NCBI GenBank assembly: GCA_963699255.1
Contig: OY969425.1
Span: forward strand, 6,070 to 70,069
Length of the DNA: 64,000 bases
From: an uncultured bacterium
GTDB taxonomy: Bacteria > Margulisbacteria > WOR-1 > CAVSGV01
Direction: 5' to 3'
Shown here: one piece after another, positions 2,498 to 61,654 of the stretch
Layout of the letters: each line of letters opens with the position of its first letter
How positions within the stretch are numbered: the stretch's first letter is position 1
Program-made: the position numbers and the translations under genes
The notes under the pieces: model-generated
Database searches by the model: none
What the model saw: only the letters and a program-made list of their open reading frames with translations
Told to the model about the DNA's origin: nothing

Positions 2498-5200
2498 ATG
2501 ATGATGAATGTTTCAAAAATGACTTTAGGGACAAGACAACCGGGTTTGAACCATCCTGTCAGTTATCGGGGGAGGATCCTTTCGCTAATTTCTCCTGAAT
2601 ATGCAATTCACCCGGATTCAGAAAAAATTGGAAAGATCATACATAATATAGCCCTCTGGCACGCAAGTATCGGAATAAGGACAAATGTTATAATCCCGTA
2701 TTCCAGTAAACTTGATAACATTAATTGGGACCAGATCACATATAACCATCCGCATAATTTCTGCTATAAGGAATATGAGGGCATTCCTGTTTTCGCGATC
2801 GGGAAAGACAAGCCTTTTTCTAATGTAATTCCGCCTAAAGAAACCGGGTATGCCGATCTGATCCATTTTGGGGACGCATTATTATATTTTATGAATCTGA
2901 ACGACTACAGCAATCATCCAACGGCCTTATTGCATTTCTTTGATTATCCCATGGGGATCGCCATGGACTACATCAGCAAACAACTTAAAGGGAACCCAAT
3001 TGCGAGTAATATGATCTTTTCACCAATGGATCCGCAAAGAAACTTTCATAAATACAACATGGGAGGAATGGGAGTCGGCATGGAAAAAGTGGATGGGCTC
3101 GAAATGGGCGCTAATGTTGCGCATAGCGTCATGTTCTGGTCGGATAAGTTTTACAAGGAGCTTCAAGGTAGTCATATGTTCTACGAATTCCTTAGGGTAA
3201 CTGGCGACAAAGCGGTTAAGTTGCCCGGTAGCTGGCAGCCTAATGTATTGGATAATATCTCGGAAAAAACATTAAGAGAGATGCAGGAAGTATATATGGG
3301 CACGTTATATAAAAAAGGGATAGATAGGTCAATACATTTTATGACTGAACCGGACACGAAAATGTTCATGGACAAGGTTTACTACTTCATTCCCGAACCC
3401 TCAGACATAGCGAAACCTTCCAGAAAAATAGTGCTCAAAGATGCTTTAAGGCATGTCGCAAGTGACCTGGACAATATAATTGTCGGTGGACTCAGAGGAG
3501 TGAAGATACTTGGCGGAGGAAGGGACAAGGATGTGTTCTACGATTACTGGGAGAATCTGGGAGGTTTAACCGCTCTTCTGGAACAGGTCATAGTGGATAA
3601 CCGGGGGAGAGCGGACGTTGATGTAAAGGGAGCAAGATACCTTCTTTTGGCAGATGCGGGAGATTTTAAAAGAGGCGGGGTAATGGCCCAGGCGCTAGGA
3701 ATTGAAGCTCTAAAAAGTTTGACGCCGGAAGGGGAGAACACACTTGGCATTAATTGTATCAAACAGGCTCCGATCTTTTTCCGTCAGCTGCCTGATCACG
3801 GGAAGGGGTGGATAGTTTTTTCCGCTTCGGACAATAAATGGCTGCCGGATGGTTCGCCAAAAACGGGGAAAAAATATTTATGGGAGTCAAAGTCCAAGAT
3901 AATCCTTACCGGGAAGCCGGCCGCCAATGTGGAGGCTGTAAAAGGCCTGGGTTGTTGGGTCGCTGATGAAGCCGGAAAGATCCAATTGTTCGCGGAGAAA
4001 GCTTCGCCGGATGTGGTTAAAAACGCCTTGGATAACCTGGGATTGGCAGAGGAAGATATAAACTTGAACCCTTTCGTTTTCGCGATCAAATACGATATTG
4101 CTGAAAAAATAGTGAACTTATACAAGGATACGCCATGCAAGAAGGACGGAAAAGCTTTTGTGACCACGTATCCCCTGGATATTTCGAGCCATTTTATTTT
4201 CCCGACAACGCTTAAAAAGGGGGAATGGCAAAGGATATACGAGATATTACAGCAGGTCAGAAAAGGCAAGGTGGCTGATGAGGTTTATGATGAAGCTACC
4301 GAGAACGGGTTAAATCTGGTCGCGATAGCGAAAGGGATGAAAAAGTTTGAAAAAGAGAGGATAGGGCAGGTATTTGATAATCTGGAGGATTGGATGATGA
4401 TATATGAGATGGCGCAGAAAATAAAACTTGATGCAAATGATATCGCGGGAGCAAGCATCGGGCCGAATTGCCAGTGGAATGATTACGGGACCCTTGAAGA
4501 AATGATCGAAAAGATGTGGATGGCGGCTTTTGATAACAAGGAGCAGGTCAGATCTGTCGCAAGAAGAAGAACAGGGTTTCCTGAGGACAACAACGATATG
4601 AGCGTTGATATGGAACAAATCAAAACGTATGTAACATTCATTGATCCAGTAACCAATGATGTCATGGATCTCGAGGACGGGGAAATTCCGGAAAAGGTGA
4701 TAATACAAGATGTTAATTTTGATCATCCGGTCCAGATCGTTGCCGATAGAGTGATATTGCATGATGTTGTACTGGGAGAGGGAGTGAAAAGGATACCGGC
4801 GAATACCATCATTTCCAGAGGGGAAATAGATGAGCTGGAAGAAGCTCCCGACCAACCCAAAAGAATATCGCATCAGCCGGCGCTAATATTCAATTGTCAT
4901 AAAAAGGGCAAGGTCATTGTTTACAGAGGCATGGCACACGCATCCCTTAGTCTTGCGTATGTTGATAATGCGGATCTTATCGCACAGGGTTTACATGCAT
5001 CAGAAACGCCGCTGGCGTTAAGCCCCATATATTTCGATCTTAAGGAGGAAATCTTGAAACAGAACAATTATCAACTGTATCCCGGCATTAATCTGCTTGA
5101 ACCGGGACTGAACATGCTGGATCAGTCGTTCATCATAGAAGATGAAAATGGCAAGCCGAAGCTTTTGGGCCTGAACTTTTTCCAGGTCAAGAGCGATTGA
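2498..5200 (+). CDS. large hypothetical protein, paralog A (900 aa)
   Basis: Long ORF. It is collinear with the next gene along its whole length, with shared motifs HNFC, HFFDYPMG, FSPMDP, ADAGDFKRGG, WESK/NAKII, FVTTYP.DIS.HFIFPTTL, YRGMAHASLSL and YPGINLLEP. No recognisable domain. Confidence 0.7.
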   Translation: MMMNVSKMTLGTRQPGLNHPVSYRGRILSLISPEYAIHPDSEKIGKIIHNIALWHASIGIRTNVIIPYSSKLDNINWDQITYNHPHNFCYKEYEGIPVFAIGKDKPFSNVIPPKETGYADLIHFGDALLYFMNLNDYSNHPTALLHFFDYPMGIAMDYISKQLKGNPIASNMIFSPMDPQRNFHKYNMGGMGVGMEKVDGLEMGANVAHSVMFWSDKFYKELQGSHMFYEFLRVTGDKAVKLPGSWQPNVLDNISEKTLREMQEVYMGTLYKKGIDRSIHFMTEPDTKMFMDKVYYFIPEPSDIAKPSRKIVLKDALRHVASDLDNIIVGGLRGVKILGGGRDKDVFYDYWENLGGLTALLEQVIVDNRGRADVDVKGARYLLLADAGDFKRGGVMAQALGIEALKSLTPEGENTLGINCIKQAPIFFRQLPDHGKGWIVFSASDNKWLPDGSPKTGKKYLWESKSKIILTGKPAANVEAVKGLGCWVADEAGKIQLFAEKASPDVVKNALDNLGLAEEDINLNPFVFAIKYDIAEKIVNLYKDTPCKKDGKAFVTTYPLDISSHFIFPTTLKKGEWQRIYEILQQVRKGKVADEVYDEATENGLNLVAIAKGMKKFEKERIGQVFDNLEDWMMIYEMAQKIKLDANDIAGASIGPNCQWNDYGTLEEMIEKMWMAAFDNKEQVRSVARRRTGFPEDNNDMSVDMEQIKTYVTFIDPVTNDVMDLEDGEIPEKVIIQDVNFDHPVQIVADRVILHDVVLGEGVKRIPANTIISRGEIDELEEAPDQPKRISHQPALIFNCHKKGKVIVYRGMAHASLSLAYVDNADLIAQGLHASETPLALSPIYFDLKEEILKQNNYQLYPGINLLEPGLNMLDQSFIIEDENGKPKLLGLNFFQVKSD

Positions 5201-5265
5201 TGCTGTTTAAAGGAAATGCGGAATTTTAAGATCCGGAGTTTGTCAAGTTTTTAGGAGGACTTATC

Positions 5266-7962
5266 ATGGACAGGCTAACAAGGACATCAGGAACAATGAG
5301 CCATCCTATCAGTTATCAGGGAAGGACCGTCTGGCTCGTTTCTCCCGAGCACATTATCCATCCGGGATGCGGGAAAATGGGGAAGATCGTACATGAGATA
5401 GCTCTGTCGAACACAAAAGCCGGAACAAATACCAATATAATAATTCCATATTCGGAGAAACTGGCTGATGTTAAATGGGACGTAAGTACGCGTAATTATA
5501 CTCATAATTTTTGCTTTAGGAAGGTTGATAATATTAGCATTTTCGCGGTCGGACGCGACCAGCCCTGGTCCGAGGTGGTGCCGGCTCAAGATAAATACTA
5601 CGAGTATGTACAATTTGCGGACGCGCTGAATTATTTTATTCATCTGCACGCTTTTACGCAAGATCCCGCCGCGATCATGCATTTCTTTGATTATCCCATG
5701 GGTTTTGCTATGAGCAATCTTAAGAGCACTCTAAGATATAATGCGAACAATTCTGATCTGATGAACAATATAATATTTTCGCCAATGGATCCGCTTAATT
5801 TTAACAAACGATATAATACAGGCGACCTTTATAACATAGACGGACTTGAATCGGGCGCTAACGCGGCGCATAAAGTGATGTTCTGGTCAGAGAAATTCTA
5901 CGATGATATCAAACGAAGCAATAGGTTCCCGGAGTTTTTAAGCGCGGCCAGCGGCAAAGAGGATATTATGCCCGGCGGCTGGCAGCCCAGAATGACGGAA
6001 ACGATCCCTCAGGTAACGATACGGGGGATGCGGGCGGGGTACATGGACACATTGTATAAAAGCGGGCTTGATCGCTCGTTCCATTTTATGGCAAGACCAG
6101 GCGTAAAAATGGACAAAGTTTTCTATTTCATTCCTGAACCATCCGATACAGGGAAACCTTCCAGGAAATCTGTGATCAGAAAGTCGTTAAGACGCGTCGA
6201 GAATGAAATGGATAGTATAGTAAAAAATGGCATAGACGGAATTAAGATGCTTGGCGGAGGAAGGGACAATGTGTTCTACGATTACTGGGGGAACCTGGGG
6301 GGATTGGTCGCTTTTCTTGAGCAAATGATGATTGAGAACACGACCAAAACGGAAGATGAAATAAAAAATGCCAGATATCTTTTCATGGCTGATGCCGGGG
6401 ATTTTAAGAGGGGCGGCGGAATTGCCCAGGCAAAAGGAGTGGAAGCTCTAAAAAGCATGACGCCGGAAGGGGATCGCACGCTCGGAATTAACTGCATTTT
6501 GCAGGCCCCCGTCTTTTTCCGGCAGCTGCCGGATGACGGAAAAGGATGGATAGTATACACGGCTTCGGACAATAAATGGATCCCCGACGGCACGCCAAGA
6601 ACGGGCAATAATTATTTGTGGGAATCAAACGCTAAAATTATCATCAGCGGGCGGCCGGCCGCAAATGTGGAAGCGGTAAGAGGACTGGGTTGTTGGATCA
6701 CCGATAAATTCGGCCAGGTCATATTTTTTGCCGAGAAAGCATCGCCGGAGGTGATCAGACACACCTTAAATAAGTTAGGCCTGAAGGAAGAAGATCTGTG
6801 CCTGAACACGTTCGTGTGGGCCATGAAATACGATCTTGCCAAAAAGATAGTGGATCTATATAAGAATAAAAAATGCAAGAAGATCATGAAGGGCAAACAA
6901 GAAGCAAAATGTTTTGTGACCACGTATCCTATGGACATTTCAACTCATTTTATCTTCCCGACAACTCTCACCCGGGCAGAATGGGAAAAAACATACGAAA
7001 TATTGCAGTATGTTAGAGCGAAAAAGGATACCTCCAAATTCAGCAATGAATTTACCGGACGCGGGCTAAGCCTGGTTGAGGTGGCGAAACAAATGAAAGG
7101 ATTTGAAAAAGAGGGGCCGGGCACTGATCAGGTCTTTAATGATCTGGATGATTGGATGACCATATATGATATGGCGAGCATTATTAACGAGGATGCAAAC
7201 GGCATAGATGGAGCGAATATCGGGAAGAATTGCCTGTGGAACGATTTCGGAGACCTTAAGAGTATGGTTAATGAAATGTATTTTGAAAATTTTTCAGACA
7301 ATGAATGGGCCAGAAAAGCCGAAAGAACGAGATCGGGATACCCTCTGGATAAGAACACTCAGAATGTTGACATGAATGAGATCAGGGACTATGTGAAATT
7401 CATAGACCCGGAATCCGGCAAGCCTATGCAGCTTGCCGAGGGGGAGATACCTGAAAAGGTGATATTAAATAATGTGAGCTTTGATCATCCTGTTGAAATT
7501 GTCGCTGACAGGGTAATATTGGATGATGTAAAGCTTGGGAAAGGGGTCACAAAAATACCGGCAAATACTATCATTGCCAAAGGAGAAATAGAGGATCTGG
7601 AAGAAGCTCCAGATCAGTCCGAAACACTTTCGAAGATGCCGGCATTGATATTCAATTGCCATAAAAAAGGCAAAGTACTTGTTTATAGGGGCATGGCACA
7701 TGCGTCTCTTAGCCTTGAATATGTCGACCAAAAAGATCTCAACGAGCAGGGTTTATCACCCTCTGACACGCCACTGACATTAACTCCCATCCTTTTCAAT
7801 TTAAAAGCACCCATTAATGAGCAAGACGACTATATACTGTACCCGGGAATTAATCTGCTTGAACCAGAATTTAGCATGTTAGAGCAGTCGTTCATCATAG
7901 AAGATGAAAATGGCAAGCCGAAGCTATTGGGCCTGACCTTTTTCCAGGTTAAGGGCGACTGA
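5266..7962 (+). CDS. large hypothetical protein, paralog B (898 aa)
   Basis: Tandem paralog of 2498..5200. A GGAGG RBS precedes the ATG. The last ~40 nt of coding DNA are almost identical to paralog A. Confidence 0.7.
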   Translation: MDRLTRTSGTMSHPISYQGRTVWLVSPEHIIHPGCGKMGKIVHEIALSNTKAGTNTNIIIPYSEKLADVKWDVSTRNYTHNFCFRKVDNISIFAVGRDQPWSEVVPAQDKYYEYVQFADALNYFIHLHAFTQDPAAIMHFFDYPMGFAMSNLKSTLRYNANNSDLMNNIIFSPMDPLNFNKRYNTGDLYNIDGLESGANAAHKVMFWSEKFYDDIKRSNRFPEFLSAASGKEDIMPGGWQPRMTETIPQVTIRGMRAGYMDTLYKSGLDRSFHFMARPGVKMDKVFYFIPEPSDTGKPSRKSVIRKSLRRVENEMDSIVKNGIDGIKMLGGGRDNVFYDYWGNLGGLVAFLEQMMIENTTKTEDEIKNARYLFMADAGDFKRGGGIAQAKGVEALKSMTPEGDRTLGINCILQAPVFFRQLPDDGKGWIVYTASDNKWIPDGTPRTGNNYLWESNAKIIISGRPAANVEAVRGLGCWITDKFGQVIFFAEKASPEVIRHTLNKLGLKEEDLCLNTFVWAMKYDLAKKIVDLYKNKKCKKIMKGKQEAKCFVTTYPMDISTHFIFPTTLTRAEWEKTYEILQYVRAKKDTSKFSNEFTGRGLSLVEVAKQMKGFEKEGPGTDQVFNDLDDWMTIYDMASIINEDANGIDGANIGKNCLWNDFGDLKSMVNEMYFENFSDNEWARKAERTRSGYPLDKNTQNVDMNEIRDYVKFIDPESGKPMQLAEGEIPEKVILNNVSFDHPVEIVADRVILDDVKLGKGVTKIPANTIIAKGEIEDLEEAPDQSETLSKMPALIFNCHKKGKVLVYRGMAHASLSLEYVDQKDLNEQGLSPSDTPLTLTPILFNLKAPINEQDDYILYPGINLLEPEFSMLEQSFIIEDENGKPKLLGLTFFQVKGD

Positions 7963-8037: not shown

Positions 8038-11000
8038 ATGGTAGAACGCACTAGGGACATAAGCCATCTGCCTGTAGCGCGGTTCAATTCGCGTTCATGC
8101 GGGATCACGTCAAAAATACCCTCAATTAAAGCCGGCCGTGATGTCGTATCGTCGACTAAAAGAATATTGATCATGTTCAAGCCGGATTGTCTGGCGTACG
8201 GAATGGTCCCGGAGACGCTCCAGCTTTTAAAGAAAGGGCTTGACCGCGAAAAGATAGATGCCCGTTTTGCAGGTCTGGTCCTCCTTAATTTAACGCCTCA
8301 GCTGACGGACAGGATATATGCGGAACATGTTGGAAAGGATTGGTACGAAGGACTATTCAAACCATTCATGACCGCAAAGCACCCGAACGAAAAAGCTGTT
8401 CGTGCCCCGATCATCGCGGCAATGCTGGAAGTAAGAAATGACGCCAGCCGGGATGTTGTCAGCGTGATAAGGAAGAACGTCATCGGCCCCACCGATGTAG
8501 AAGAGTACGAAAATAAAGATGAAATAAAGGACACATTAAGATACAAACTGATACTGGAAAAAGGATTGTTAACATGGCCGTTCCCGGAGGATCCCAAAGG
8601 CCCGAATTACAACAGGATACATTGTTCTGCAAATGAAAAAATCGCGGGAGATGAACTTTACCCGGTTTTTGGCATAAAAGGCATTTTGTCCAAACTTTAT
8701 GAACCGTCCGCGGTAAAGGATGTTCTGTCAGGCTGGAGCCAGCAGGGTTATGCCGATGTCCCCGGCGTGATCAGGATACCGATTCATGAGTATCTTGGGG
8801 CTGATCCGGTGATCTTTTCCAGAAAGATCATCAGGGCCTTCAGTGACAATGGATGCGTATATAAGGACTTTGATGAGATCAAGGCTGAACAATTGATAAG
8901 GTCATTGAATGACATGCGGGAGATGATCCAGGGCCAGGAGTTTTTTTTTAACAAGGTAACCTCTTCGATCGACCCCACAGATCCCATAAATCCTTTAAAA
9001 CCAAGAGTTGTAGCAATATTTGGCGCCCCCGGAAGCGGAAAAACCACCATTTCAGACATATTAAAGAATAAAGGCGTCGTTTCCATTCTGCCTTTGACCG
9101 TGAATGAAGAAAGAGAAAAAAGCGGAGCGACGGAATATGAGCTCAGATCAAAGACCGAAATATTGCGGATGATCCGGGAGAATGAATTCGTCGGATGGGA
9201 AATCCTTGCCGGCAATTATTATGGAATATCAAAACGGACCGCGGAAATGATCCTGAGATCTTCCGGCAAAACTTTCGCTCTGCTGGCCGGGCCAACAATT
9301 GTTTATCCATTAAGGGAAGCGCTCAAGGGGAAAGCGGACTTTTATCAGGTGATGTTCAAAGTGCCCCCGAATGACCTTGCTTCAAGGATCACAAAACGCG
9401 CGACCGTCCGGGACAGGGAAAGGGGCATCGCTTTATCCCTTGAGACTCAAAAATGGATGGAGGAAAGTTTCGGGAATTTCGACCTCATAACGGAAAACCC
9501 GAACAGCGAAAGTGAAACGGCGGCGGCTCAAAAGCTGATCGATTTTCTGGCCAAGCCCCAAAACGTAGAATTCGACCGCAAAAAAGAAGCTTCAACTCTG
9601 GCGGCTACTTATCCATATAATGCCGTGGAAATGTTCAAGGACCAGAGACAGAGTTTCAGTAATAAGGATATTGTAACCCTTGAAAAACAAGTCATGTCCC
9701 TTGTGGGGACTACAATTGAAGCTATGTACCGCGCGGTCAGGAGCTCGCTTCCCGCGGAGACGGACCTGGGAGTCGAATTCAATGAATTTTTGTCCGGCTT
9801 GATATTGCATACCGCAAAAGTACTGGTCGCCGGTATTCAGCTTAGATCGTTCCAATATGAAGATATTACCGCGAGCCCGATCAAGTTCGGCAGGATAGGA
9901 CTGTGCAGCTCAAAAGAAAGGGCGGATAAACTTTATAAAAAGCTCAAGGATATCCAGAACAGGATGCCTCTTGAAGAAGAAATGCTTTTTGATCTTGTTC
10001 ATGATATCGGGAAAATGGAGAACATCATACAACATCCCGAAAAAGGTTATGAAATAGCGAAAAGGCTGAAAATGTTCGAAGGGTGGGGGGTTGAAGGGAT
10101 AGACACCGATGTCGATCTTATTGCCATAAAATGCTCGCATCTTATCGGCTCGTATATGTTGCCGGATAATTCGCTTATTGCCGTGGCAGATGAACTTTCC
10201 CATAAGGATGTGAAGAGCGTTCTTGCCAGGAAGGACGGGAGCGTGGACATGGAACGCATGAAAAACTTCCTGGAAAAGATATGTTTTTTCCCGTCCAAGG
10301 ACGCATCCGGATACAAGGATGGATGGTTGTTAGTTCTGTTCTCTGAAGGGTATTTTGCCTTTGGAGAATGGCTTTATTCCGTATTCAGCAGGAATTCGGA
10401 TAATTACGATAACGCGATAGCTGAAATTAAAAAGAGCAGCGCCGGGTCTAATATGGACAGGATAGCAAAGTGCGTTGCCATGGAGGATGCGGATGCCGAT
10501 GTCAACGGGCGAACATTCGAATATTACAGGGACAATATCGTAATGCCGAACGTCCGGGCCTGCGTTGATGAATGGGTATTCACGCAAAAAGACTGGGATC
10601 TGGTCGTGGGGAACCTCCATCATATAAGTAAACTCCGTTATTCAACGAACCTGATATGCGATTCCCTGCAGTGGATAGGGGCAAAAGGCGAAAAGATCGA
10701 GGACCTCAATAATTACAGGAATATGTTCAAGCTTTTCGTGATCATGGCTAAATCGCTCATCGCATTCTCAAAGGATCCATCGCGGCCCGGCGATTTTGAG
10801 TTCAGGTTCACATATGACGACGGCAAAGAGATAATGGGCCCGAAGAATTGGGGGCCGGCAATGGACTTTTGTAATGACCAGCTGGATATTTCAACCGGCG
10901 ATATTGAAAAAGTCGGCAACAGCATATCAATCGTTCCCAAAGAAAAAAGCAAGCTGCCGAACGTGGAAATTACCGAAGAAATCGTGGATGGATGCAGGTT

Positions 11001-11052
11001 GATCTCCTTCAAGCTTAAAGGTTATTCAGGGCAAAATCCCGCTTCAAAATAG
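8038..11052 (+). CDS. multidomain protein with NDK-like, guanylate-kinase-like and HD-phosphohydrolase domains plus a C-terminal region of unknown function (1004 aa)
   Basis: Residues ~40-180 read ILIMFKPDC...FAGLVLLNLTPQLTDRIYAEHVGKDWYEGLFKPFMT...APIIAAMLEVR, an NDK-like fold in which I cannot find the HGSD catalytic His. Residues ~330-490 have the P-loop AIFGAPGSGKTT, then TVNEEREKSG, GNYYGISKRT and LAGPTIV, matching GMP kinase. Residues ~590-700 have H...LVHDIGK, an HD motif. The start is uncertain; ATG at 8174 (MFKPD) is an alternative. Confidence 0.7.
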   Translation: MVERTRDISHLPVARFNSRSCGITSKIPSIKAGRDVVSSTKRILIMFKPDCLAYGMVPETLQLLKKGLDREKIDARFAGLVLLNLTPQLTDRIYAEHVGKDWYEGLFKPFMTAKHPNEKAVRAPIIAAMLEVRNDASRDVVSVIRKNVIGPTDVEEYENKDEIKDTLRYKLILEKGLLTWPFPEDPKGPNYNRIHCSANEKIAGDELYPVFGIKGILSKLYEPSAVKDVLSGWSQQGYADVPGVIRIPIHEYLGADPVIFSRKIIRAFSDNGCVYKDFDEIKAEQLIRSLNDMREMIQGQEFFFNKVTSSIDPTDPINPLKPRVVAIFGAPGSGKTTISDILKNKGVVSILPLTVNEEREKSGATEYELRSKTEILRMIRENEFVGWEILAGNYYGISKRTAEMILRSSGKTFALLAGPTIVYPLREALKGKADFYQVMFKVPPNDLASRITKRATVRDRERGIALSLETQKWMEESFGNFDLITENPNSESETAAAQKLIDFLAKPQNVEFDRKKEASTLAATYPYNAVEMFKDQRQSFSNKDIVTLEKQVMSLVGTTIEAMYRAVRSSLPAETDLGVEFNEFLSGLILHTAKVLVAGIQLRSFQYEDITASPIKFGRIGLCSSKERADKLYKKLKDIQNRMPLEEEMLFDLVHDIGKMENIIQHPEKGYEIAKRLKMFEGWGVEGIDTDVDLIAIKCSHLIGSYMLPDNSLIAVADELSHKDVKSVLARKDGSVDMERMKNFLEKICFFPSKDASGYKDGWLLVLFSEGYFAFGEWLYSVFSRNSDNYDNAIAEIKKSSAGSNMDRIAKCVAMEDADADVNGRTFEYYRDNIVMPNVRACVDEWVFTQKDWDLVVGNLHHISKLRYSTNLICDSLQWIGAKGEKIEDLNNYRNMFKLFVIMAKSLIAFSKDPSRPGDFEFRFTYDDGKEIMGPKNWGPAMDFCNDQLDISTGDIEKVGNSISIVPKEKSKLPNVEITEEIVDGCRLISFKLKGYSGQNPASK

Positions 11053-11102: not shown

Positions 11103-12536
11103 ATGAGTGAAATTCGCTTTAACCCGAGAATGCCGCGCGTAGAGAACGCTGTTTTGCAGCCGAAAAAGCTGTCAAACGGAACATCCGCGCTTTATTTCAG
11201 CAGATCGCTCCCGTATAGCGATCCCAATAACGCGAGAGAACTGATAGATAACAAGCTTTTTTATCTGTCGGCGCAGAGGTTTGATGTCTTCGCGTGTTTC
11301 TCGGGGCACATGTCCAGAAAGCCCGCCATTTTACAGGAAAGCGTGAACCGATTTGCATCCCGTTTTAGAGAAAGAAACAAGGTGGTCATAAAGGAACTTG
11401 GAGCGGGATCCGGGGACAGCATGGCAATCGTGCTTGGCGATGTAAAAAAGAGATATTCTCCGCTGTACAAGAAATTGTCCGCGTATGCTTCCGACGGGTA
11501 TGAACCGGTTTGTGAAGCAATGAAAAGGTCAAAGCAGCTTCGACAATTCATTTCAGAAAATAAATTGGATATTTTACGGGAGGACCTGTTGGAAGATCTC
11601 CACGGCCAGAAATTAGCCGATTATGTTCGAGTGAGTTATTCTCTCTCGGACCTTCCGGAAGATATCGTGAAGAAAGAAAACGGAAGGTTTTACGCGGCTG
11701 ATGTAAGAGGATATATTACCGGCAAAGAGGGCTTTAGAACGCAAGACAATGAAAATATCCCTGTCAAATATATTGCCGGTCTGTTAAGCGAAGGAAAGCT
11801 GCAGGAGATCATAGACCTGGGACTGGACATACGCGACATAAAACCCAGAGTGGGATTTGATGTCAAGTATGCGCCTATGGATTTCGCCGTCATGACCGAC
11901 GGCGGTCTGGTCAGGAATATACTGGAGCAGATCACGGCTGGTATGGGAGATACCAAGCTCAGGACGGGATTGAACGCGGCAAAAGCGGTCGAAAAAATAT
12001 TGAACAATCATCTCAGGCCGGATGTTGGATCATATATCGAGGCGTTCGATGTGTGGACATCAGAGATCATGCCGCATGCGCACATCCCTTATACGGCCCT
12101 TGATCTTACTTCGGCATACAGCGTGAACCTGCCTTTCATCAAGGCGTATTTTGAAGCCAAAAAGACGCCGATAGATGTGGGATTCGAGGACTGGAAGAGA
12201 TACATAAATCTGACAGAGCCGTATATCGATCTGTCGCATTTTTCAAGATGGCTAAAGGGCAGCGGAGCGGAGATCGATTCGTTCTTCGGGCGGCATATTC
12301 CGGCAAGAAGCGTGAGCATGGTCGTTGACTTCCTTAAAAGGACGCAACATGTTGCTGATATGGTTTTATATTCCGAAAAGCAGGCTCATCCATTTATCCT
12401 GGTCCTTAATAACGCGGGATTCACTGAGAAGGAAAAAGAAATGTTATTCATCAGCGGAAAATTCCCGGAGACCGTTAATACAAAAACAAAAGGTTATTTC
12501 GGGCTTTATCAGGTCGTTACCATCAAAAACATATGA
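11103..12536 (+). CDS. hypothetical protein, possible Rossmann-fold SAM-methyltransferase-like (477 aa)
   Basis: AAGGAAG RBS. VIKELGAGSGDSMAIVLG resembles MTase motif I, with an acidic residue after the next strand (AYASDGYEP). Assignment is weak. Confidence 0.5.
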   Translation: MSEIRFNPRMPRVENAVLQPKKLSNGTSALYFSRSLPYSDPNNARELIDNKLFYLSAQRFDVFACFSGHMSRKPAILQESVNRFASRFRERNKVVIKELGAGSGDSMAIVLGDVKKRYSPLYKKLSAYASDGYEPVCEAMKRSKQLRQFISENKLDILREDLLEDLHGQKLADYVRVSYSLSDLPEDIVKKENGRFYAADVRGYITGKEGFRTQDNENIPVKYIAGLLSEGKLQEIIDLGLDIRDIKPRVGFDVKYAPMDFAVMTDGGLVRNILEQITAGMGDTKLRTGLNAAKAVEKILNNHLRPDVGSYIEAFDVWTSEIMPHAHIPYTALDLTSAYSVNLPFIKAYFEAKKTPIDVGFEDWKRYINLTEPYIDLSHFSRWLKGSGAEIDSFFGRHIPARSVSMVVDFLKRTQHVADMVLYSEKQAHPFILVLNNAGFTEKEKEMLFISGKFPETVNTKTKGYFGLYQVVTIKNI

Positions 12537-12583: not shown

Positions 12584-13327
12584 ATGCCTATGGCCGATAT
12601 TAGAGGGATTTCATTCGGGACAGCGTTAAAAGGGACGGCCCATTATCTAAAAATGAGGTCAATGGAAAAGCTGCATCCATTCAATGTCCCTGCCGGCGGG
12701 AAATTCTCAAAGCCCGGTCTCATAATGGACGAAGATGCTTACGTAATGGCCATGCATGAGCCGATAGCCGTATATTACGCGCAAAAGCTCGCGGTAAAGC
12801 ATCTGGTCGAGATCTGCTCAGGAGCCGGTTCAATGACAGTTCAATTCGGGCGGTTCAGCGACCGCGTATCCACAATAGAGATGGACCTTTACCGTTCTCA
12901 AAGGTGTGTCCCGCACAATACAAAAGTTTACGGCGTAAATGAAAAGGTGACCTCAATATGGGGGAACGCCATGCATGAAGATCTTTTAAAATCTTTAGCT
13001 CCGGCTGGTGCGGTTTGGGCCGATCCGGACTGGCTTTATGACGTGCCGCCGGCGAATTTCCCGATCGCCATGACGCAGCCGCCGATCCCGGAGGTATTTG
13101 AAAAGGTCAACCGCTTATTGACCCCTAACATGGCGTTCAGGATGGTGAGGACAACAAGGATCAATGACGTGCTGAAGCTTGGCCCATGCAGGATAGAATA
13201 TGTTTATTGGGACAATAAGCTTAAATTCCTGGTAAGCCTCTTTGGTAATCTTGCTTCTGAACAGGGTATCTTTGAAATTAACTTTTCCTCAGATAAAGGA
13301 TTCCTCTCAAGCCAGCGCATTAAGTGA
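12584..13327 (+). CDS. putative SAM-dependent methyltransferase (247 aa)
   Basis: Motif I-like VEICSGAGSMTVQFG. A downstream WADPDW / DVPPANF segment is reminiscent of the (D/N)PP(Y/W) motif of amino-MTases. Own promoter motif and RBS. Confidence 0.5.
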   Translation: MPMADIRGISFGTALKGTAHYLKMRSMEKLHPFNVPAGGKFSKPGLIMDEDAYVMAMHEPIAVYYAQKLAVKHLVEICSGAGSMTVQFGRFSDRVSTIEMDLYRSQRCVPHNTKVYGVNEKVTSIWGNAMHEDLLKSLAPAGAVWADPDWLYDVPPANFPIAMTQPPIPEVFEKVNRLLTPNMAFRMVRTTRINDVLKLGPCRIEYVYWDNKLKFLVSLFGNLASEQGIFEINFSSDKGFLSSQRIK

Positions 13328-13373: not shown

Positions 13374-13583
13374 ATGAAGACCGGAAAAGCAATAAATTTC
13401 TATTTCAATGAACCCCGCATTTACAGGGCGAGACCGGATGTCGCGAGGCTGAAAACACTGCATAAAGAAGGGCTTAACATACGGTATACAACAGCTGAGG
13501 ACAGGGACATGAAGATACCCGACAAATTTTTTCCCTGCACCGCGTATCGCGGGAAACCTCATTACCCAGGGATATTCATATAA
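13374..13583 (+). CDS. small hypothetical protein (69 aa)
   Basis: Strong RBS (AGGGGAG) and the promoter motif lie directly upstream. The ORF ends 4 nt before the PurA-like gene. Confidence 0.4.
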   Translation: MKTGKAINFYFNEPRIYRARPDVARLKTLHKEGLNIRYTTAEDRDMKIPDKFFPCTAYRGKPHYPGIFI

Positions 13584-13587: not shown

Positions 13588-15162
13588 TTGGATTACGCGG
13601 TCAGCGTCATTAAGAACCAATTTGACAATAAAACACTGAAGGCCGGAGACAGCATTGACCTGATGAAATACCTTAAATTGCGCGGCAATTCTATGGTCCT
13701 TTGCGGAGCGCAATGGGGCGATGAAGGAAAGGGAAGAATGGCTTACCTCATGGCTTCCTTATTGGGAGCCAAAGCCGTGGTGAGATTCAACGGCGGGCCG
13801 AACGCGGGGAAAGTGGTGGAGGCTGAAAATGGAAGGGTCTTTGAATTGTGCATGCTGCCTGCCGGCGCTCTCAACCCGGACGTGGAAATATACATGGCTC
13901 AGGGAACGTACATCAACCTCAAGTATCTTCTAAAAGAGATTGACGATCTAGAGGCAAACAAAATATCCACCAGGAGGAGAGTGTTCATTGATGACAATTG
14001 CAGTTTGGTCCTTCCGTACTACGAAGAATTAAGCCGGGCAAAAAATATGGAGCGTTCAAAGGCCATATCTTTTAATGCAGGAATGGGAGAAGGAAGCACC
14101 GGCATGGGAATGGGCGGGGCGGTGGAAAGTAATGATATGCGCCGGGGCATTAAAGTCCATGATCTGTTCGGCGATCCCAAGCAATTACTCTCCAAGATAA
14201 CTAAAGATTTGATTTTGCAAGAATATAAGATCAGGGGATTGCTATTGATAAATAATGATAGCTGGCGTTTTCCTGAAAATTACGCAAAGAACCTTTGTGA
14301 TGACCTGTTGAAAATGGCGGGAGAGATCAAGCATATGAGGGCGAATGTAGGCCGAAAGATAGAAAGAACGATTCTGGCCGGCGGGAACATTGTTTTTGAA
14401 GGCGTCCAGGCGGCGCTTCTGGATAATGCCTGGGGCACATATCCAATTAATACAACATCCACCAAAACAACACCAAATAGCATTTATGATGGTTTGAACC
14501 TTGATTCAAAATATATGCTGACAAAAGTGGGTATCGTCAAAAGTTATACTGCCGTAAGAGGGAAGACCCCGCTTCCTACCGAATTAACCGGGGCAGAAGG
14601 TGATAAATTAAGTGAAGCGGGAAATGAATATGAGGTCAGTTACAAGATAGATCCAGAAGGCACCTTAATAACGGTTTATAATCCCGACGGGAAAACGATA
14701 GCTTATGATAAAAGCAAGCGTATCGCTGTGGGGTGGCAGGATGCCCTGGTTCTTGCAGAGTGCGCAAAGACAGGATTCACGCACTTCGCGCTCACAAAAC
14801 TGGATGCTCTGGACGGCTTCGATGAAATAAAGATCGCGACAGCGTACAAATACGAAGGCGATCAGGAATTAAACCCTAGTATTTATGAGGTCGAAGAACA
14901 CGACGAGGCAACTTTCATCCGATCATATGTCAAAGACCCGAAAGTACTTAAACACTGCACGCCGATCTATGAGACACTCCCCGGGTGGGCGTCCGAACTT
15001 AAAAAAAGAGGGCTTGCATCAATTTCGGAGATAAAAAAGTTTGAAGATCTTCCTGCCGCGGCGCAGAACTATGTGAAACGAATAGAAGAGATTCTGGGGC
15101 GTCCGATCGTATTTGTCTCTGTCGGCCCCAAAAAGGACCAATATATTGAAAGAAAATACTAG
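13588..15162 (+). CDS. adenylosuccinate-synthetase (PurA)-family ligase, divergent, with a remodelled active site and a ~100-aa insertion
   Basis: The P-loop CGAQWGDEGKG, VVRFNGGPNAGKV (GHT replaced by GKV), LLDNAWGTYPINTTST, TKLDALDG and SVGPKKD all align to PurA. The Asp-binding GATTGRRRR loop is replaced by VSYKIDPEGTLITVYNPDGKTIAYDKSKRIAVGW. The annotated start is TTG; in-frame ATGs at 13663 and 13693 are alternatives. Confidence 0.8.
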   Translation: MDYAVSVIKNQFDNKTLKAGDSIDLMKYLKLRGNSMVLCGAQWGDEGKGRMAYLMASLLGAKAVVRFNGGPNAGKVVEAENGRVFELCMLPAGALNPDVEIYMAQGTYINLKYLLKEIDDLEANKISTRRRVFIDDNCSLVLPYYEELSRAKNMERSKAISFNAGMGEGSTGMGMGGAVESNDMRRGIKVHDLFGDPKQLLSKITKDLILQEYKIRGLLLINNDSWRFPENYAKNLCDDLLKMAGEIKHMRANVGRKIERTILAGGNIVFEGVQAALLDNAWGTYPINTTSTKTTPNSIYDGLNLDSKYMLTKVGIVKSYTAVRGKTPLPTELTGAEGDKLSEAGNEYEVSYKIDPEGTLITVYNPDGKTIAYDKSKRIAVGWQDALVLAECAKTGFTHFALTKLDALDGFDEIKIATAYKYEGDQELNPSIYEVEEHDEATFIRSYVKDPKVLKHCTPIYETLPGWASELKKRGLASISEIKKFEDLPAAAQNYVKRIEEILGRPIVFVSVGPKKDQYIERKY

Positions 15163-15262: not shown

Positions 15263-15287
15263 ATTGAAAGAAAAGGGAAACCAATAT

Positions 15288-18200
15288 ATGCCATTTTTTG
15301 AACGAATTAAATTCAACAGGACAGATATAAGAAAGCAAAACGTTGAGCCCCTTAAAATAGGGAAGCAGGCTCCAAAGCTGCATTTGCCGGATCAAGAAAT
15401 AAGGGTTCGAATTATCCCTGAGATCCATGGCATAACGGGGAACATGGAAAACATGAATAATATCGGACGGACCATAAAGATTTCCCAGGATGACGCCACA
15501 CTGTTCAAGACCCATCCCTGGCTGGAGCAAATACCCGAGGACGCGATCTTAAGCGGGGAAACCGCGAAGATATTCAAGAATAAGCTTTCAAAGGTCATTG
15601 ACGCGATGGACGGCCTGATGCCAAGTATCGGTGTTACGGGCACTAAATTAAAGAGTATCAGGGTCGCGACAGCGGAATTAAAGAAAATATTTAAGAGATC
15701 GGAAGGAAAGACGGTCCGGGACACATGCAAGGCATTGATCGGCGTATACACCTATTTGGGTGTAAGAGCGGTCGGGACCGTGGCTGTGGTGGGGATCCCG
15801 CAAATATCGACAGGTGAAAAGGTGATAGACGGAATAGCCGCGGCGGCGCTTTTTCTGGGAGAAAGTGTCGTAAGGCTCAGGACAACGATCGGATACCAGC
15901 ACTCGATCCTGGAAGGATTGGGCAGGGGACCAAAATATTACGATATAAGCGCGGATGAGAAAGTGCATGCTTCGGGGATCGAATTCAACCCAAATGACCT
16001 GGAAAACCCTTTCAAAATATTTACTGACGCGCCGGAATGCATGTCTGTCCTATATATCAATGAAGAGCCCGGCGTGCTGGAGAGAAGCATTTTCGGGCAC
16101 TTCTTTATTGAGAACAAGAGGCAAATGATGGTCGTGAACAGCGGAGGTTATAAGTTCGAGGAGTTCCAGCATATCGTGGATACCGTAAAAAATTGGATAG
16201 AAGCAAGAAAGAGCGAGGTACTGTCGGCAAAAGCTAGGTCCATAAGCTCCCGGGACGCGGAACTGTCGGCCATGGAACTTTTAAAGCTTCTTGTGAACAT
16301 AAGGACGGAGTGCAAGAGGCTTTCCGATGCCTACTATGAAACGGCCGTTCAGGATTTTGGCAACATGATAGCGGGCAGCGGCGCGGCGCTAGATAAGGAG
16401 CTTGCTCAGCAGATATTGCTGCATACCCGCAAATGGGACGAGAAGATATCCGCTCTTTATGACCATATAGAAAATTATGAGGGCGGCAATGTAAACGCGG
16501 ACCAGCTGAGACGCCATATAAGTTCTCACTATGACTATCTTGAGCAAAAATTCACTTTTGACATAGTGATCAATTTCCGCAATTTCAAGACCTTTGATGT
16601 TGGAACGTATAAAGCCATGTGCGGCGCGATAGAAACAAGGCTTGCAGGTCAAAATATCGACATGAACGCGCCCGTAGAAAGCGCCTCTTTTAACGCGATA
16701 GTAGACAGGATAATCGAGGAGAGCGAAGACAGGGACAGGCCGGTAAGCTACCTGTTGTCAACGATCCAAATGAACAACGGGAACGTGCGCTATGATCAAA
16801 CCTCGGCTTCTTATAAATATAATTGCATCATCGGCGGAAAGACGAACAAAGCGGTGCTGGATGAGCTTATTATGGAGAATCTTTCAAGAATGGCGTTTGA
16901 AGGCGCCTACAAAGCCGGCGCCCGGGCCGAGGAATATGACCATCTTGGCAGGAAATACGTGAAGGCCGTGAACAGCTACGGTACAAGGTTCCTTGTGACC
17001 GTGGATGAATGGCTTGGCGGCATGTCGGATGTGATACTTGGGCCTGAATTGAGGAGAGCTTCAATTGATCTTGGGAACAATGTGGCCGGACAGCTTCAAC
17101 TGGATGCCGCAAGGGCAATAGATAAAGAGACAGCACAAAGAGCCATAGAAGCGGTGGCATCAAGGACATTGAACAACGGCGGCAACACGACGATCCGCGA
17201 CAGGCAAAAGATAAGGATAATGGAGAGGATCGCAAAAGTGTTCATGGAGGATGGCAGGACGACCGGCGATTTCCTGAAAGAAATAGCGGCTGTCGCGCTT
17301 TATGATGTGGCGGCTTCTCCGACTTATGATCCGACATATGAGACCGCGATCGAATGGGCGGCGTATCCCGAAAAGGCGTATATCCTGAGCTATGACAAGG
17401 ATTATGTCCCGCAGTCCATAGATCCGAACAGCGGCGAATATAATGATATGGCAAGATTGAGCGTGCCGATGCATGAAAAATGGATCTATGAAGACAACAG
17501 GACAAATATAGCTTTGATCCAGCATCCCCAGTACCAGAAGCATTTTAAAAAAGAAGGCCCCTTAAAAGACGGCGTCAGAATGACTACCGGCAACGGGAAG
17601 TACCTGGAGCCGGTGGCAAATTCTTCGGGATCGGACCAGCAGGCATGGTACGGCGAGTTTGCCCTGCCAAAGCCGCTTGAAAGGACGCTTAGCAGGTATA
17701 TCAACAGGAGAACAGGCGTGCAGTTCCTGGAAAAGGTTGCGAACAAACTTTACAAGGACAAGACCGTTAGAAAGAGCCTTGTCGCGAATATTACAAGGGA
17801 TATGCGGGAGAATGTGGCTTACAGGATGGAGAAAGGTATTGACCAGAAGCTGGATTACCTGACCGGGCGGGAGATCATTGAAAGGGTAAAATATTATTCA
17901 AGGGATATCATGATCGCCACCGGGATTGGGCCGGGAAGGGGAAAATTCAACTCGTTCTTCAGCTGCGGTACCAATGAGCTTGAATATGCGGTGGGCATGA
18001 TGCTTGGTTTTAACAGCCCATATACATATATGGTGGACGGTATAACGATGCTCGGGCAGACGACCGTAAGATATAACCCGGACATGGGAAAGATGGAGAT
18101 ACATAATTATGAGCCCAGATTTTCAAATGATCTGACATGGATAAGCGAAAGCAATGATCAAAATCACAGGCAAATGCATGAATTGAACGAGTCCGATATG

Positions 18201-18314
18201 AGGGAAATAAAAGAGGAGTACGAAGTTAACGGTAGGACCGTGGCGTTCTTGAATAACAGGGCATATGTGAAATACAACGGTGATGTTGAGAAGGTGATCT
18301 GGTGGTATCAGTAA
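15288..18314 (+). CDS. large hypothetical protein (~1008 aa)
   Basis: Long ORF. ATG at 15288 has AAGGGAAA 10 nt upstream; the ORF track's start at 15264 is TTG. No recognisable domain. Confidence 0.65.
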   Translation: MPFFERIKFNRTDIRKQNVEPLKIGKQAPKLHLPDQEIRVRIIPEIHGITGNMENMNNIGRTIKISQDDATLFKTHPWLEQIPEDAILSGETAKIFKNKLSKVIDAMDGLMPSIGVTGTKLKSIRVATAELKKIFKRSEGKTVRDTCKALIGVYTYLGVRAVGTVAVVGIPQISTGEKVIDGIAAAALFLGESVVRLRTTIGYQHSILEGLGRGPKYYDISADEKVHASGIEFNPNDLENPFKIFTDAPECMSVLYINEEPGVLERSIFGHFFIENKRQMMVVNSGGYKFEEFQHIVDTVKNWIEARKSEVLSAKARSISSRDAELSAMELLKLLVNIRTECKRLSDAYYETAVQDFGNMIAGSGAALDKELAQQILLHTRKWDEKISALYDHIENYEGGNVNADQLRRHISSHYDYLEQKFTFDIVINFRNFKTFDVGTYKAMCGAIETRLAGQNIDMNAPVESASFNAIVDRIIEESEDRDRPVSYLLSTIQMNNGNVRYDQTSASYKYNCIIGGKTNKAVLDELIMENLSRMAFEGAYKAGARAEEYDHLGRKYVKAVNSYGTRFLVTVDEWLGGMSDVILGPELRRASIDLGNNVAGQLQLDAARAIDKETAQRAIEAVASRTLNNGGNTTIRDRQKIRIMERIAKVFMEDGRTTGDFLKEIAAVALYDVAASPTYDPTYETAIEWAAYPEKAYILSYDKDYVPQSIDPNSGEYNDMARLSVPMHEKWIYEDNRTNIALIQHPQYQKHFKKEGPLKDGVRMTTGNGKYLEPVANSSGSDQQAWYGEFALPKPLERTLSRYINRRTGVQFLEKVANKLYKDKTVRKSLVANITRDMRENVAYRMEKGIDQKLDYLTGREIIERVKYYSRDIMIATGIGPGRGKFNSFFSCGTNELEYAVGMMLGFNSPYTYMVDGITMLGQTTVRYNPDMGKMEIHNYEPRFSNDLTWISESNDQNHRQMHELNESDMREIKEEYEVNGRTVAFLNNRAYVKYNGDVEKVIWWYQ

Positions 18315-19771
18315 AAAAAATCGAGAATAAATCGGTCAGGCTCGACTGCCGCAGGGTGGAGCTGGACTATTCGCGCCGTAAGCAGTCCGGAAAAATAATA
18401 AAGGATTATAACCCATCGAGCAGCAATTATTATGAATTGAAGCTGGGACCGGGAAGGGTGTTCACCGAAAGATTCAGATGTAAAGAGGATAATATTTCCA
18501 CGATAATAGCGAACCTGAAACTCCAGAGGGAAATGGTGGGTGTTCCTGATATCGGCGACGGCAGGGGAGGAACGAAGATCATTTCGGTTAAGACTCGCAT
18601 TGCCGAAATGGTCGCCCAGTACCATTCATTTAAAGATGACAAGGAATACGTTGAAACTGTATTGACCGCCCCTATCTTTCAGCCGCCAAGCTGGATCACA
18701 GAGGACATGATGACCACATATTTCCATTACCTTACCGGCTGGGACACGGAGATCAATCCTGAGGGCGTTGGGTTTGCGGTCGGGCCTTCGGATTTTGTTG
18801 ATCTGGCCAAGCAGCATCACAGATGGTTCAAGGGCGGGCCGGAATGTTATCTGGACATGAAAAAATACCTTGACGCGTACCCGGCGTTGAAACATTCAAT
18901 GCAGGGGTATTCCATGCAACAGGCGTTCTTATGGCCGCTACATACCTTAACCGATGAGCTTCTGTATTATGTGCCGGCCGTTTATTGGGCCGGCCAGATA
19001 CTCAAGATCGGCGGAAAGATCCTGAAGAAGGGGATAATCCCGTTTTCAACCAACTGGATCTTTATTCCCGTGTTCGGGTGGTATTTCTACTATACCCTTA
19101 AGAACTATATAAGGCCGATGGCTTTAATGGGGGTCAGTTTCCCCGAATTATGGAGAAAAGAAGCGATGCTTTCCATACAGGGACCTGTTTATGAGGACGC
19201 CGTTAAAAAGGCGGTCCTGCGAGAGCCGCTTGAATTCGCGGCGACGGCGGCCGGAGACAGGAAAATGCTCTCGTATGAATTCCTTAAAGGGATAAAATGG
19301 AAAAGGAACCTGAGCAAGGTCACAACGCTTGTCGGAACAGGTATTTCCGCGGGGCTTGTATATCTGAAAGGCGGCGATCTTGAGTGGCAGACTTATGCCG
19401 GCTTAGGGTTCAATGTCCTGTTCCCGCTTTTAAGATGGGGATTGCTCAGCAGCGGGATAAAAGACCAGTATTCTTACCCCACAAGTTATGACACATACCT
19501 GAAGGAAAACCTGGAGCTCGAGGGCGCCGGATACATAAAAGTATCCGAACATACCCCCGATACAAGGCTTGTAACCTTTAAGGTGAACAGCAAGCAGGAC
19601 GCGGAAAGGGCGATAAACAGATTATCGGGTAATCTGGGAGCGTTCACCCAGGTGAAGAATTATCTTGCGGGCATTCCGGGCACAGCGGGATTTGCCGAAA
19701 TAGCAAGCCAGATACTGGCGCCTGATAACGCGGCCGAACCGAACGGACCCAGACCGTGTACCTGGCGGTGA
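18302..19771 (+). CDS. hypothetical integral membrane protein (489 aa)
   Basis: GTG start overlaps the upstream stop. Hydrophobic segments include FLWPLHTLTDELLYYVPAVYWAGQIL and IPFSTNWIFIPVFGWYFYYTL. Confidence 0.55.
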   Translation: MVSVKKIENKSVRLDCRRVELDYSRRKQSGKIIKDYNPSSSNYYELKLGPGRVFTERFRCKEDNISTIIANLKLQREMVGVPDIGDGRGGTKIISVKTRIAEMVAQYHSFKDDKEYVETVLTAPIFQPPSWITEDMMTTYFHYLTGWDTEINPEGVGFAVGPSDFVDLAKQHHRWFKGGPECYLDMKKYLDAYPALKHSMQGYSMQQAFLWPLHTLTDELLYYVPAVYWAGQILKIGGKILKKGIIPFSTNWIFIPVFGWYFYYTLKNYIRPMALMGVSFPELWRKEAMLSIQGPVYEDAVKKAVLREPLEFAATAAGDRKMLSYEFLKGIKWKRNLSKVTTLVGTGISAGLVYLKGGDLEWQTYAGLGFNVLFPLLRWGLLSSGIKDQYSYPTSYDTYLKENLELEGAGYIKVSEHTPDTRLVTFKVNSKQDAERAINRLSGNLGAFTQVKNYLAGIPGTAGFAEIASQILAPDNAAEPNGPRPCTWR

Positions 19772-56562: not shown

Positions 56563-56776
56563 CGGGTAACCATGGAACCTGAGACTAAAAGTCTCGGTTC
56601 CAAATAGAGTATGAAAATTAACCGCGAATTTTATTCGCGGGATGTTAGTTAGCTCATCCTAGGGCATAACGGGTAACCATGGAACCTGAGACTAAAAGTC
56701 TCGGTTCCAAATAGAGTATGAAAATTAACCGCGAATTTTATTCGCGGGATTTTAGTTAACTCATCCGAGGGCATAA
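56545..56776 (+). repeat. tandem direct repeat, 2 x 107 bp plus a 15-bp partial third unit; each unit has two hairpins and includes the last ~18 nt of the recombinase gene
   Basis: The unit is (gct)catcctagggcataacgggtaaccatGGAACCtGAGACtaaaaGTCTCGGTTCCaaatagagtatgaaaattaaCCGCGAATtttATTCGCGGgat(g/t)ttagtta(g/a)ct, with units at 56548-56654 and 56655-56761, then catccgagggcataa. Confidence 0.85.
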
Positions 56777-56779
56777 AAT

Positions 56780-57379: not shown

Positions 57380-57380
57380 A

Positions 57381-60343: not shown

Positions 60344-60350
60344 TGGACAG

Positions 60351-61630: not shown

Positions 61631-61654
61631 GATGAGAAGAGGAGAATTGATCCG

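Follow-up and report, generated by a model that had tools for sequence, protein, structure and literature searches.

The window analysed here is a stretch of 64,000 nucleotides from an uncultured bacterium of the Margulisbacteria (assembly GCA_963699255.1, contig OY969425.1, positions 6,070 to 70,069 of the forward strand). At 8038-11052 of its + strand lies a gene for a single protein of 1004 residues, in which a nucleoside diphosphate kinase (NDK) domain, a guanylate kinase (GK)-fold P-loop domain and an HD-superfamily phosphohydrolase domain follow one another. The open reading frame (ORF) is real, free of interruption and encodes all three domains. Moreover, the identical 1004-residue protein is encoded by a second, short contig (L005) obtained from another sequencing run and assembled separately, so the fusion is not an assembly artefact.

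Domain layout of the NDK–GK–HD protein

Pfam, NCBIfam and PDB sequence searches detect all three domains, bearing out the order NDK-like, GK-like, HD that the initial annotation had proposed from the letters alone. The domain boundaries that it asked to be confirmed are, by Pfam, residues 42-211 for NDK, 322-493 for Guanylate_kin and 653-721 for HD. Also, the motifs that it quoted were located at IMFKPDC (containing K48), GAPGSGKTT (residues 329-337), GNYYGISK (residues 392-399), H591 and HDIGK (residues 655-659). In the PDB sequence search, the best matches are a guanylate kinase (PDB code: 7luy) with an E value of 3e-8 and an NDK (PDB code: 1wkj) with 2e-3.

A full-length AlphaFold2 model, built on a family alignment of 37 sequences, has a mean predicted local distance difference test score (pLDDT) of 89.2 and a predicted template modelling score of 0.73, disorder being confined to residues 1-26, 311-317, 880-888 and the last five residues. 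A model of the C-terminal half alone, based on 3 sequences, reached a pLDDT of 53 and was discarded in favour of the full-length one. With the model of the protein as the query, the top 50 Foldseek matches are all guanylate kinases, and in the fold searches aimed at the HD module the match lists were likewise filled by kinases. The features of the gene are as follows.

8038-11052, + strand: whole gene of the NDK–GK–HD protein, 1004 residues, ATG start, from the ORF list; homologues P0002 and P0003.
8146-8673, + strand: NDK-like domain (residues 37-212), with five insertions relative to canonical NDKs.
8620-8622, + strand: codon of His195, the predicted phospho-histidine (NRIHCSA), by alignment with the NDK catalytic histidine; histidine in 15 of the 16 family members that carry the domain.
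8674-8988, + strand: helical linker from the NDK to the GK domain (residues 213-317), without a library match; modelled as helices with pLDDT ~80-95, only residues 311-317 being disordered.
8941-8949, + strand: T9 homopolymer at the NDK/GK junction (FFF, residues 302-304), read in frame as GAG-T9-AAC; split site in the sister species.
8989-9522, + strand: GK-fold P-loop NMP-kinase domain (residues 318-495), with the P-loop GAPGSGKTT at 9022-9048.
9523-10317, + strand: HD-superfamily phosphohydrolase domain (residues 496-760), with H591, H655-D656 (10000-10005), K659, H666, S700/H701 and D755.
10318-10782, + strand: conserved helical extension of the HD module (residues 761-915), with pLDDT >90 over most of its length and E770, D817 and D821.
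10783-11037, + strand: C-terminal small α/β domain (residues 916-1000), predicted as β-α-β-β-β-β with pLDDT ~90 and found in most family members.

The initial annotation saw no recognisable domain in about 300 C-terminal residues. The absence of a library match holds, the helical extension of residues 761-915 having no Pfam match either in this protein or in family members, but the region is conserved (E770, D817, D821) and is confidently modelled as the helical extension followed by the α/β domain. The C-terminal residues are a conserved portion of the HD module, and the modelled α/β domain possibly has a ligand-binding or regulatory function.

Active-site residues of the three modules

For the NDK domain, a ferredoxin-like NDK fold is found, and the scores stay under the curated cut-offs, being 24.9 bits against 27 for Pfam NDK (E 2e-5) and 19.6 bits against 155 for the NCBIfam Ndk equivalog. 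The initial annotation could not find the catalytic histidine of the HGSD motif and suggested that the module may be non-catalytic. This histidine is in fact present: HMMER aligns His195 in NRIHCSA with the histidine of NVIHGSA in the NDK from T. thermophilus. Also, when the domain was aligned by MAFFT to Ndk of E. coli and to human NME1, K48, Y94, T152, R168, N192, H195, S197 and E206 fall in invariant columns, R145 being one position off R88. The catalytic set thus consists of H195 together with K48, Y94, R145, T152, R168, N192, S197 and E206, equivalent to K12, Y52, R88, T94, R105, N115, S120 and E129, and it is kept in 12 to 16 of the 16 family members with the domain. Non-catalytic status is not supported, and the module appears to be catalytically equipped, with nothing pointing to inactivity. 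The differences from Ndk (PF00334), a stand-alone enzyme of ~140 residues, are the HCS in place of HGS at the active-site motif, the five insertions of 6-15 residues each and the fusion, or in one species the adjacency, to other enzymes.

The middle domain shows the GK fold with its P-loop and lid. It is matched by Pfam Guanylate_kin (E 2.4e-5, 24.6 bits against a cut-off of 25.2), by NCBIfam guanyl_kin (TIGR03263; E 2e-9, 37.1 bits against 160) and by the PHROGs guanylate kinase family (E 3e-7). All 22 members examined carry the P-loop lysine K335, the arginines of the lid are also there, and the GNYYG segment is kept together with the equivalents of Y50, Y78 and R41 (yeast numbering). When the GMP-binding set was considered as a whole (yeast S34, R38, R41, Y50, E69, Y78, S80 and D100), four positions proved to be replaced in this protein, R38 by Asn, E69 by Gly, S80 by Ile and D100 by Gly. 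E69, S80 and D100 are the guanine-recognition positions of the yeast structure (PDB code: 1GKY). In comparison with guanylate kinase (Gmk, PF00625/TIGR03263), these positions are changed family-wide, and R38 is replaced by Asn in the clade of the window. Two positions past the E69 site, the family has a conserved acidic residue. Several distant members retain the canonical phosphate-binding segment TTRxPRxGE…DYxF, which in the clade of the window reads TVNEEREK…EY. Because the guanine-binding residues are replaced, the acceptor is probably not ordinary GMP, and the domain would be a GK-fold kinase of another nucleoside monophosphate (NMP). The description of this domain as GMP-kinase-like therefore stands for the P-loop fold, but its assignment as a GMP kinase is doubtful.

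In the HD module, the core spans residues ~580-760 with the pattern H…HDxGK…H…(H)H…D, and Pfam HD matches this protein at residues 653-721 with an E value of 0.037. H591, H655-D656, K659, H666, D755 and D821 are invariant in the family alignments; H591, H655/D656, H666 and D755 are conserved in every member covering those columns (30-35 sequences), H700 is conserved in 29 of 34, and R628, S712, E770 and D817 are near-invariant. The H…HD…D metal ligands are H591, H655-D656 and D755, accompanied here by H666 and H701. The full ligand set for which the initial annotation had asked is present in the family (H591, H655-D656, H666, H700 and D755), with Ser700 and His701 in this protein. Among 16 family members scanned, 8 are matched by the generic Pfam HD model (best E 2e-5), and none is matched by the RelA/SpoT, HD-GYP or PgpH models. 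A PDB profile search gave weak matches to the HD-type domains of the exopolyphosphatase PPX (E 0.011), Cas10 and class II poly(A) polymerase. The module shares the motif and an all-helical core with HD phosphohydrolases (PF01966), the nearest among solved structures, by sequence, being the C-terminal domain of PPX/GppA, the HD domain of Cas10 and that of class II CCA/poly(A) polymerases. It differs from them in matching only the generic model, and weakly, in having ~85 extra N-terminal and ~250 extra C-terminal conserved residues, and in the additional invariant residues R628, S712, E770, D817 and D821.

A rare family in a conserved gene neighbourhood

Word-indexed searches of 5.8 billion proteins returned only the protein itself, a homologue of 995 residues (P0002, 48% identity) and a homologue of 702 residues without the NDK part (P0003, 65%), and the use of family profiles in these searches still gave only those three. 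When a profile of the C-terminal half was run exhaustively with HMMER against 1.84 billion representative proteins, 36 relatives were found at E <= 1e-3, most of them 950-1050 residues long and matched at residues ~500-1000, which corresponds to the same layout. The architecture is thus as unusual as the initial annotation held it to be, and the same domain order, for which it proposed a search in other genomes, is found in distant relatives, most of ~1000 residues. When 22 relatives were scanned against Pfam, 13 matched Guanylate_kin (best E 1e-14), 10 matched NDK at E < 0.01 (best 5.8e-10) and 5 matched HD.

No relative of the protein turned up in a pattern-limited scan of the GTDB, taken at one representative genome for each species. 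Pattern-limited scans of viral contigs did not find the fusion and gave only ordinary stand-alone phage guanylate kinases, and a phage origin of the fusion was rejected on these scans. Literature searches gave no description of the NDK–GK–HD architecture or of LDcluster4-linked systems. The proteins form a real, recurrent and very rare family of uncultured bacteria. The architecture and the family are new, and they are made of known kinds of enzymes and folds within an undescribed conserved gene set.

The NDK/GK junction is the site of a natural split. In the sister species (L002, 8989-8996; L003, 4453-4460; L004, 8975-8982) the sequence is GG-T8-AAC, with one base fewer upstream of the run, and the T8 run reads TTT TTT TAA, ending an NDK ORF of 303 residues. 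A GK-HD ORF of 702 residues lies in the +1 frame and overlaps the NDK ORF by 20 nucleotides. The split sequence is identical across the three independent assemblies, and the more distant homologue in L001 has no T run. The T8 allele may reflect a true split of the gene, +1 frameshifting at UUU UAA, transcriptional slippage or phase variation. Since the NDK and GK-HD parts are encoded separately in this species, the modules are separable partners.

The gene stands in a run of same-strand genes with intergenic gaps of 47-75 nucleotides, an operon-like layout, with no terminator-like intergenic site in the run; promoter and terminator scans performed no better than on shuffled sequence. To the left of the gene block, ordinary leuC and leuD genes lie on the opposite strand. 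The neighbouring features are as follows.

2498-7962, + strand: two tandem paralogues of 900 and 898 residues, with a glycosyltransferase family 5 (GT5)-like N-terminal half, a nucleotidyltransferase-like centre and a left-handed β-helix.
11103-12536, + strand: protein of 477 residues with the S-adenosylmethionine (SAM)-methyltransferase-like motif ELGAGSG and a weak match to Pfam Methyltransf_28; a recurrent partner.
12584-13327, + strand: class I methyltransferase of 247 residues, matched by Pfam Methyltransf_15 in the SAM-binding part only.
13588-15162, + strand: divergent adenylosuccinate-synthetase-like (PurA-like) protein of 524 residues (Pfam E 1e-92).
15264-23892, + strand: ORFs of 1016, 489 and 316 residues, followed by a protein of 1061 residues with a glycoside hydrolase family 26 (GH26) domain, all without signal peptides.

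A member of the ~900-residue family adjoins the NDK–GK–HD gene in seven loci (the window, L001, L002, L088, L090, L091 and L092), and every locus with enough context has one or two such proteins beside it. The profile of this family matches the N-terminal half of glycogen synthase (residues 23-224) and left-handed β-helix proteins (residues 703-782), and the member in L091 shows a Pfam Glyco_transf_5 match and an LNGGVGERL motif of the nucleotidyltransferase type. The 477-residue protein, for which a PDB profile search was uninformative, occurs in four loci: the window, L002, L090 (43% identity) and, as a fragment, L088. In the last two the NDK–GK–HD protein itself is only ~25% identical to that of the window. 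Beyond the window, the gene for the 247-residue methyltransferase is restricted to the close relatives L002, L003 and L005.

The PurA-like protein scores 291 bits against a cut-off of 402 with NCBIfam PurA, and 75 bits against 300 with PurZ (NF038379). In this protein and in its counterpart in L002 (13443-15269) the motif GGHNAGH reads GGPNAGK, the catalytic His41 (E. coli numbering) being Lys, and insertions are also present. The gene is found in three loci, the third being a fragment upstream of a distant family member in L086. A 69-residue ORF in another frame (13374-13583) is homologous to the N-terminal extension of the 608-residue PurA-like protein of L002; a frameshift, either genuine or due to a sequencing indel, thus appears to interrupt the gene in the window. 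Similarly, the ORFs of 1016, 489 and 316 residues (15264-20706) overlap by 13 and 16 nucleotides and correspond to a single gene for a protein of 1775-1778 residues in L002 and L091, so that the gene in the window either contains several frameshifts or is genuinely split. This giant protein has no Pfam match. The GH26 protein is found in the window, L002 and L091 and is absent from L088, L090 and L092.

Loci whose NDK–GK–HD protein is distant (23-26% identity to that of the window) were compared by BLAST, and a metagenome scan added L092 and L093. In four of them, the partner regions (L088, 5337-9713; L090, 13055-14455; L092, 3489-6408; L093, 1694-3053) hold jointly the following kinds of genes: a SLOG/LOG-like (LDcluster4/TIGR00725) gene for 460-480 residues in all four; a ribokinase-like PfkB kinase gene in L090 and L093, and also in L091; an NTP_transferase+LbH gene (β-helix; sugar-1-phosphate nucleotidyltransferase) in L092; and an adenylate kinase gene and a B12/radical-SAM gene in L088. 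None of the proteins encoded from 2498 to 33878 of the window has a signal peptide or a membrane segment, which points to a cytoplasmic location of the cluster. These analyses establish the domain folds, the conservation of the catalytic residues, the existence of the family and its gene neighbourhood.

The block from 2498 to 33878 comprises ~30 kb of same-strand genes for large proteins (up to 1459 residues), almost all without a Pfam match. It is followed by a protein of 2904 residues rich in fibronectin III domains and then by secreted proteins with TIG and SLH domains. Farther along, two overlapping ORFs of 329 and 435 residues (49691-51834) both match the same PQQ/BamB-like β-propeller families and are probably one frameshifted gene. 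ThiC (51839-53116) is at most 60% identical to that of any GTDB species representative, its best matches falling in many different phyla. Searches of the 64-kb window gave neither a tRNA or rRNA nor any other Rfam element, and thiC has no thiamine pyrophosphate riboswitch upstream. At 55702-62100, a gene for an XerC/D-type tyrosine recombinase is followed by a region of low G+C content (0.40-0.41 against ~0.50) encoding an ORC/Cdc6-like ATPase and a methyltransferase, which may be an integrated element.

A probable three-activity nucleotide enzyme and its possible pathway

The best explanation is a cytoplasmic nucleotide enzyme with three activities. The GK-fold P-loop domain would phosphorylate an NMP to the nucleoside diphosphate (NDP) using ATP, and the NDK domain would convert the NDP to the triphosphate (NTP) via a phospho-His195 intermediate. 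The HD module, probably a two-metal phosphohydrolase enlarged by the helical extension and the α/β domain, would act on a phosphorylated nucleotide by hydrolysis, whether as a return valve, for sanitising or at a regulated step. For this ladder from NMP to NTP coupled to a nucleotide phosphohydrolase, as read from the conserved residues, we estimate a probability of roughly 0.6. The order of the reactions, any passage of intermediates from one domain to the next, which nucleotide is used and what the HD module acts on are inferred, the channelling from NMP to NTP being a reasonable inference. Several observations weigh against this explanation. For this one sequence, the NDK, Guanylate_kin and HD matches each fall just under the Pfam gathering threshold. 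In the whole family, yeast E69 is replaced by Gly or Ala, S80 by Ile, Leu or Val and D100 by Gly (in the clade of the window, R38 is Asn as well), and the GK-fold kinase may be slower or have another role. Also, the clade of the window has Ser at position 700 and His at 701, where the family usually has His700.

At the level of the pathway, the protein appears to be a nucleotide-supply or recycling component of the conserved gene set, whose constant partner is the ~900-residue enzyme. In this role it would provide, regenerate or keep in check the nucleotide that this nucleotidyltransferase-like partner uses, most likely in the service of an undescribed nucleotide or nucleotide-sugar pathway of the cytoplasm. 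Two possible systems carry about equal weight, each of them tentative. In one, the NDK–GK–HD protein would return NMP and NDP to NTP for an intracellular, possibly methylated, polysaccharide made from an NDP-sugar, analogous to glycogen or to the methylmannose polysaccharide of mycobacteria. The mycobacterial cluster consists of ManT (a GDP-mannose transferase), the SAM methyltransferases MeT1 and MeT3 and the endo-hydrolase MmpH (PMC9883506). It resembles the present one as a cytoplasmic set using an NDP-sugar, the counterparts here being GT5-like, methyltransferase-like and GH26 genes without signal peptides; the kinase/HD, SLOG and PurA-like proteins are absent there, and the likeness is by gene types, with no sequence relationship shown. 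This proposal is favoured by the ~900-residue family, with its glycogen-synthase-like N-terminal half, LNGGxGxRL-type nucleotidyltransferase centre and β-helix, by the GH26 protein in three loci, by the NTP_transferase+LbH gene in L092 and the sugar-kinase-like PfkB genes in other loci, by the methyltransferase-like genes and by the general lack of signal peptides. However, a glycan pathway would not be expected to include SLOG/LOG-like, PurA-like or adenylate kinase partners, L088, L090 and L092 lack GH26, no ~900-residue member in the window reaches a curated glycosyltransferase threshold, a housekeeping NDK is normally enough for NDP recycling, and the HD module has no obvious role in this scheme. 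In the other system, the gene set would make a non-canonical purine nucleotide, for example methylated or N6-substituted. Here the modified NMP would be phosphorylated in the re-tooled GK pocket and carried on to the triphosphate by the NDK domain, and the HD module would clear away the canonical competitor nucleotide or an intermediate, in parallel with phage base-modification pathways. The replacement of the guanine-specifying residues across the family, with the phosphoryl-transfer residues kept, is consistent with this possibility. So are the change of His41 to Lys in the neighbouring PurA-like protein, conserved in L002 and with a homologous fragment adjacent in the distant L086, and the recurrence of SAM-methyltransferase-like genes, of SLOG/LOG-like genes in four loci, of PfkB genes in three and of adenylate kinase in L088. 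On the other hand, the methyltransferase matches are confined to the SAM-binding fold, the candidate modifying enzymes are all without a defined substrate, and the scans of viral contigs gave no phage relatives of the fusion. Moreover, the sole invariant partner, with its GT5, nucleotidyltransferase and β-helix parts, points to sugar-nucleotide chemistry. The phage 2-aminoadenine (Z-base) pathway reportedly combines PurZ, a guanylate kinase and an NDK with the HD-domain dATPase DatZ, as papers of 2021 in Science and Nat Commun are said to describe. The same four types of enzymes lie within 7 kb here (adenylosuccinate-synthetase-like, GK fold, NDK and HD), but on a bacterial chromosome, with the kinases and the HD domain fused, and with a PurA-like protein that scores higher on the PurA models. 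Because this protein reaches only 75 of the 300 bits required by the PurZ model, a PurZ/Z-genome assignment was rejected and the resemblance is to be read as an analogy only.

Two further explanations are improbable. As an alarmone or second-messenger enzyme, the protein would use its HD module, controlled by the C-terminal α/β domain, for hydrolysis of a signal that is (p)ppGpp-like, Ap4A-like or a cyclic nucleotide, and its kinases would restore the purine pool. The pattern H…HDxGK…H…HH…D is of the type of two-metal HD phosphodiesterases, and HD proteins such as RelA/SpoT and GlnD bear small C-terminal regulatory domains, to which the predicted α/β domain is comparable; the best PDB match, a weak one, is the C-terminal domain of PPX/GppA. 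Nevertheless, the RelA/SpoT, HD-GYP and PgpH models are unmatched, leaving the generic HD model, and the neighbourhood has no synthetase or cyclase gene. At slightly longer odds still, housekeeping Ndk and Gmk would simply be fused to an HD nucleotidase without a link to the neighbours, as fusions of consecutive enzymes are common and the host replicon is small (a contig of 1.77 Mb). Against this are the replaced GMP-site residues, NCBIfam equivalog scores far under the cut-offs (37 against 160 bits for Gmk and 20 against 155 for Ndk), the extreme rarity of the family and the partner genes still conserved at 25% protein identity. A variant of it, an anti-phage protein depleting nucleotides, has in its favour a PADLOC match to DolB (E 8e-5, residues 256-344); this match is weak and covers the linker and P-loop region, and no defence-system model matches any of the eight neighbours, so that anti-phage defence is not supported. 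The alarmone, housekeeping and defence explanations are less likely, given the lack of a match to any specific HD subfamily, the very low NCBIfam equivalog scores and the absence of PADLOC matches among the neighbours.

Going one step beyond the three-activity enzyme, it is conceivable, if speculative, that the NDK–GK–HD protein and its invariant ~900-residue partner are the core of an undescribed cytoplasmic pathway in a deep, uncultured lineage of bacteria. In it, a non-canonical purine nucleotide would be activated via the re-tooled GK pocket and the PurA-like enzyme with Lys in place of His41, and passed to the nucleotidyltransferase/glycosyltransferase-type enzyme to give a new nucleotide-linked metabolite or polymer, the HD module being a dedicated hydrolase.

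Finally, NDKs, NMP kinases and HD hydrolases are known from textbooks as enzymes of a single domain, and here all three are joined in one conserved protein whose base pocket is altered, in a host lineage without a close representative genome. Gene order ties the fusion to large proteins and gives a biochemical entry to ~30 kb of genes without annotation. Direct assays of the kinase and HD activities are possible, and their substrate preference would reveal the nucleotide used by the neighbouring enzymes.

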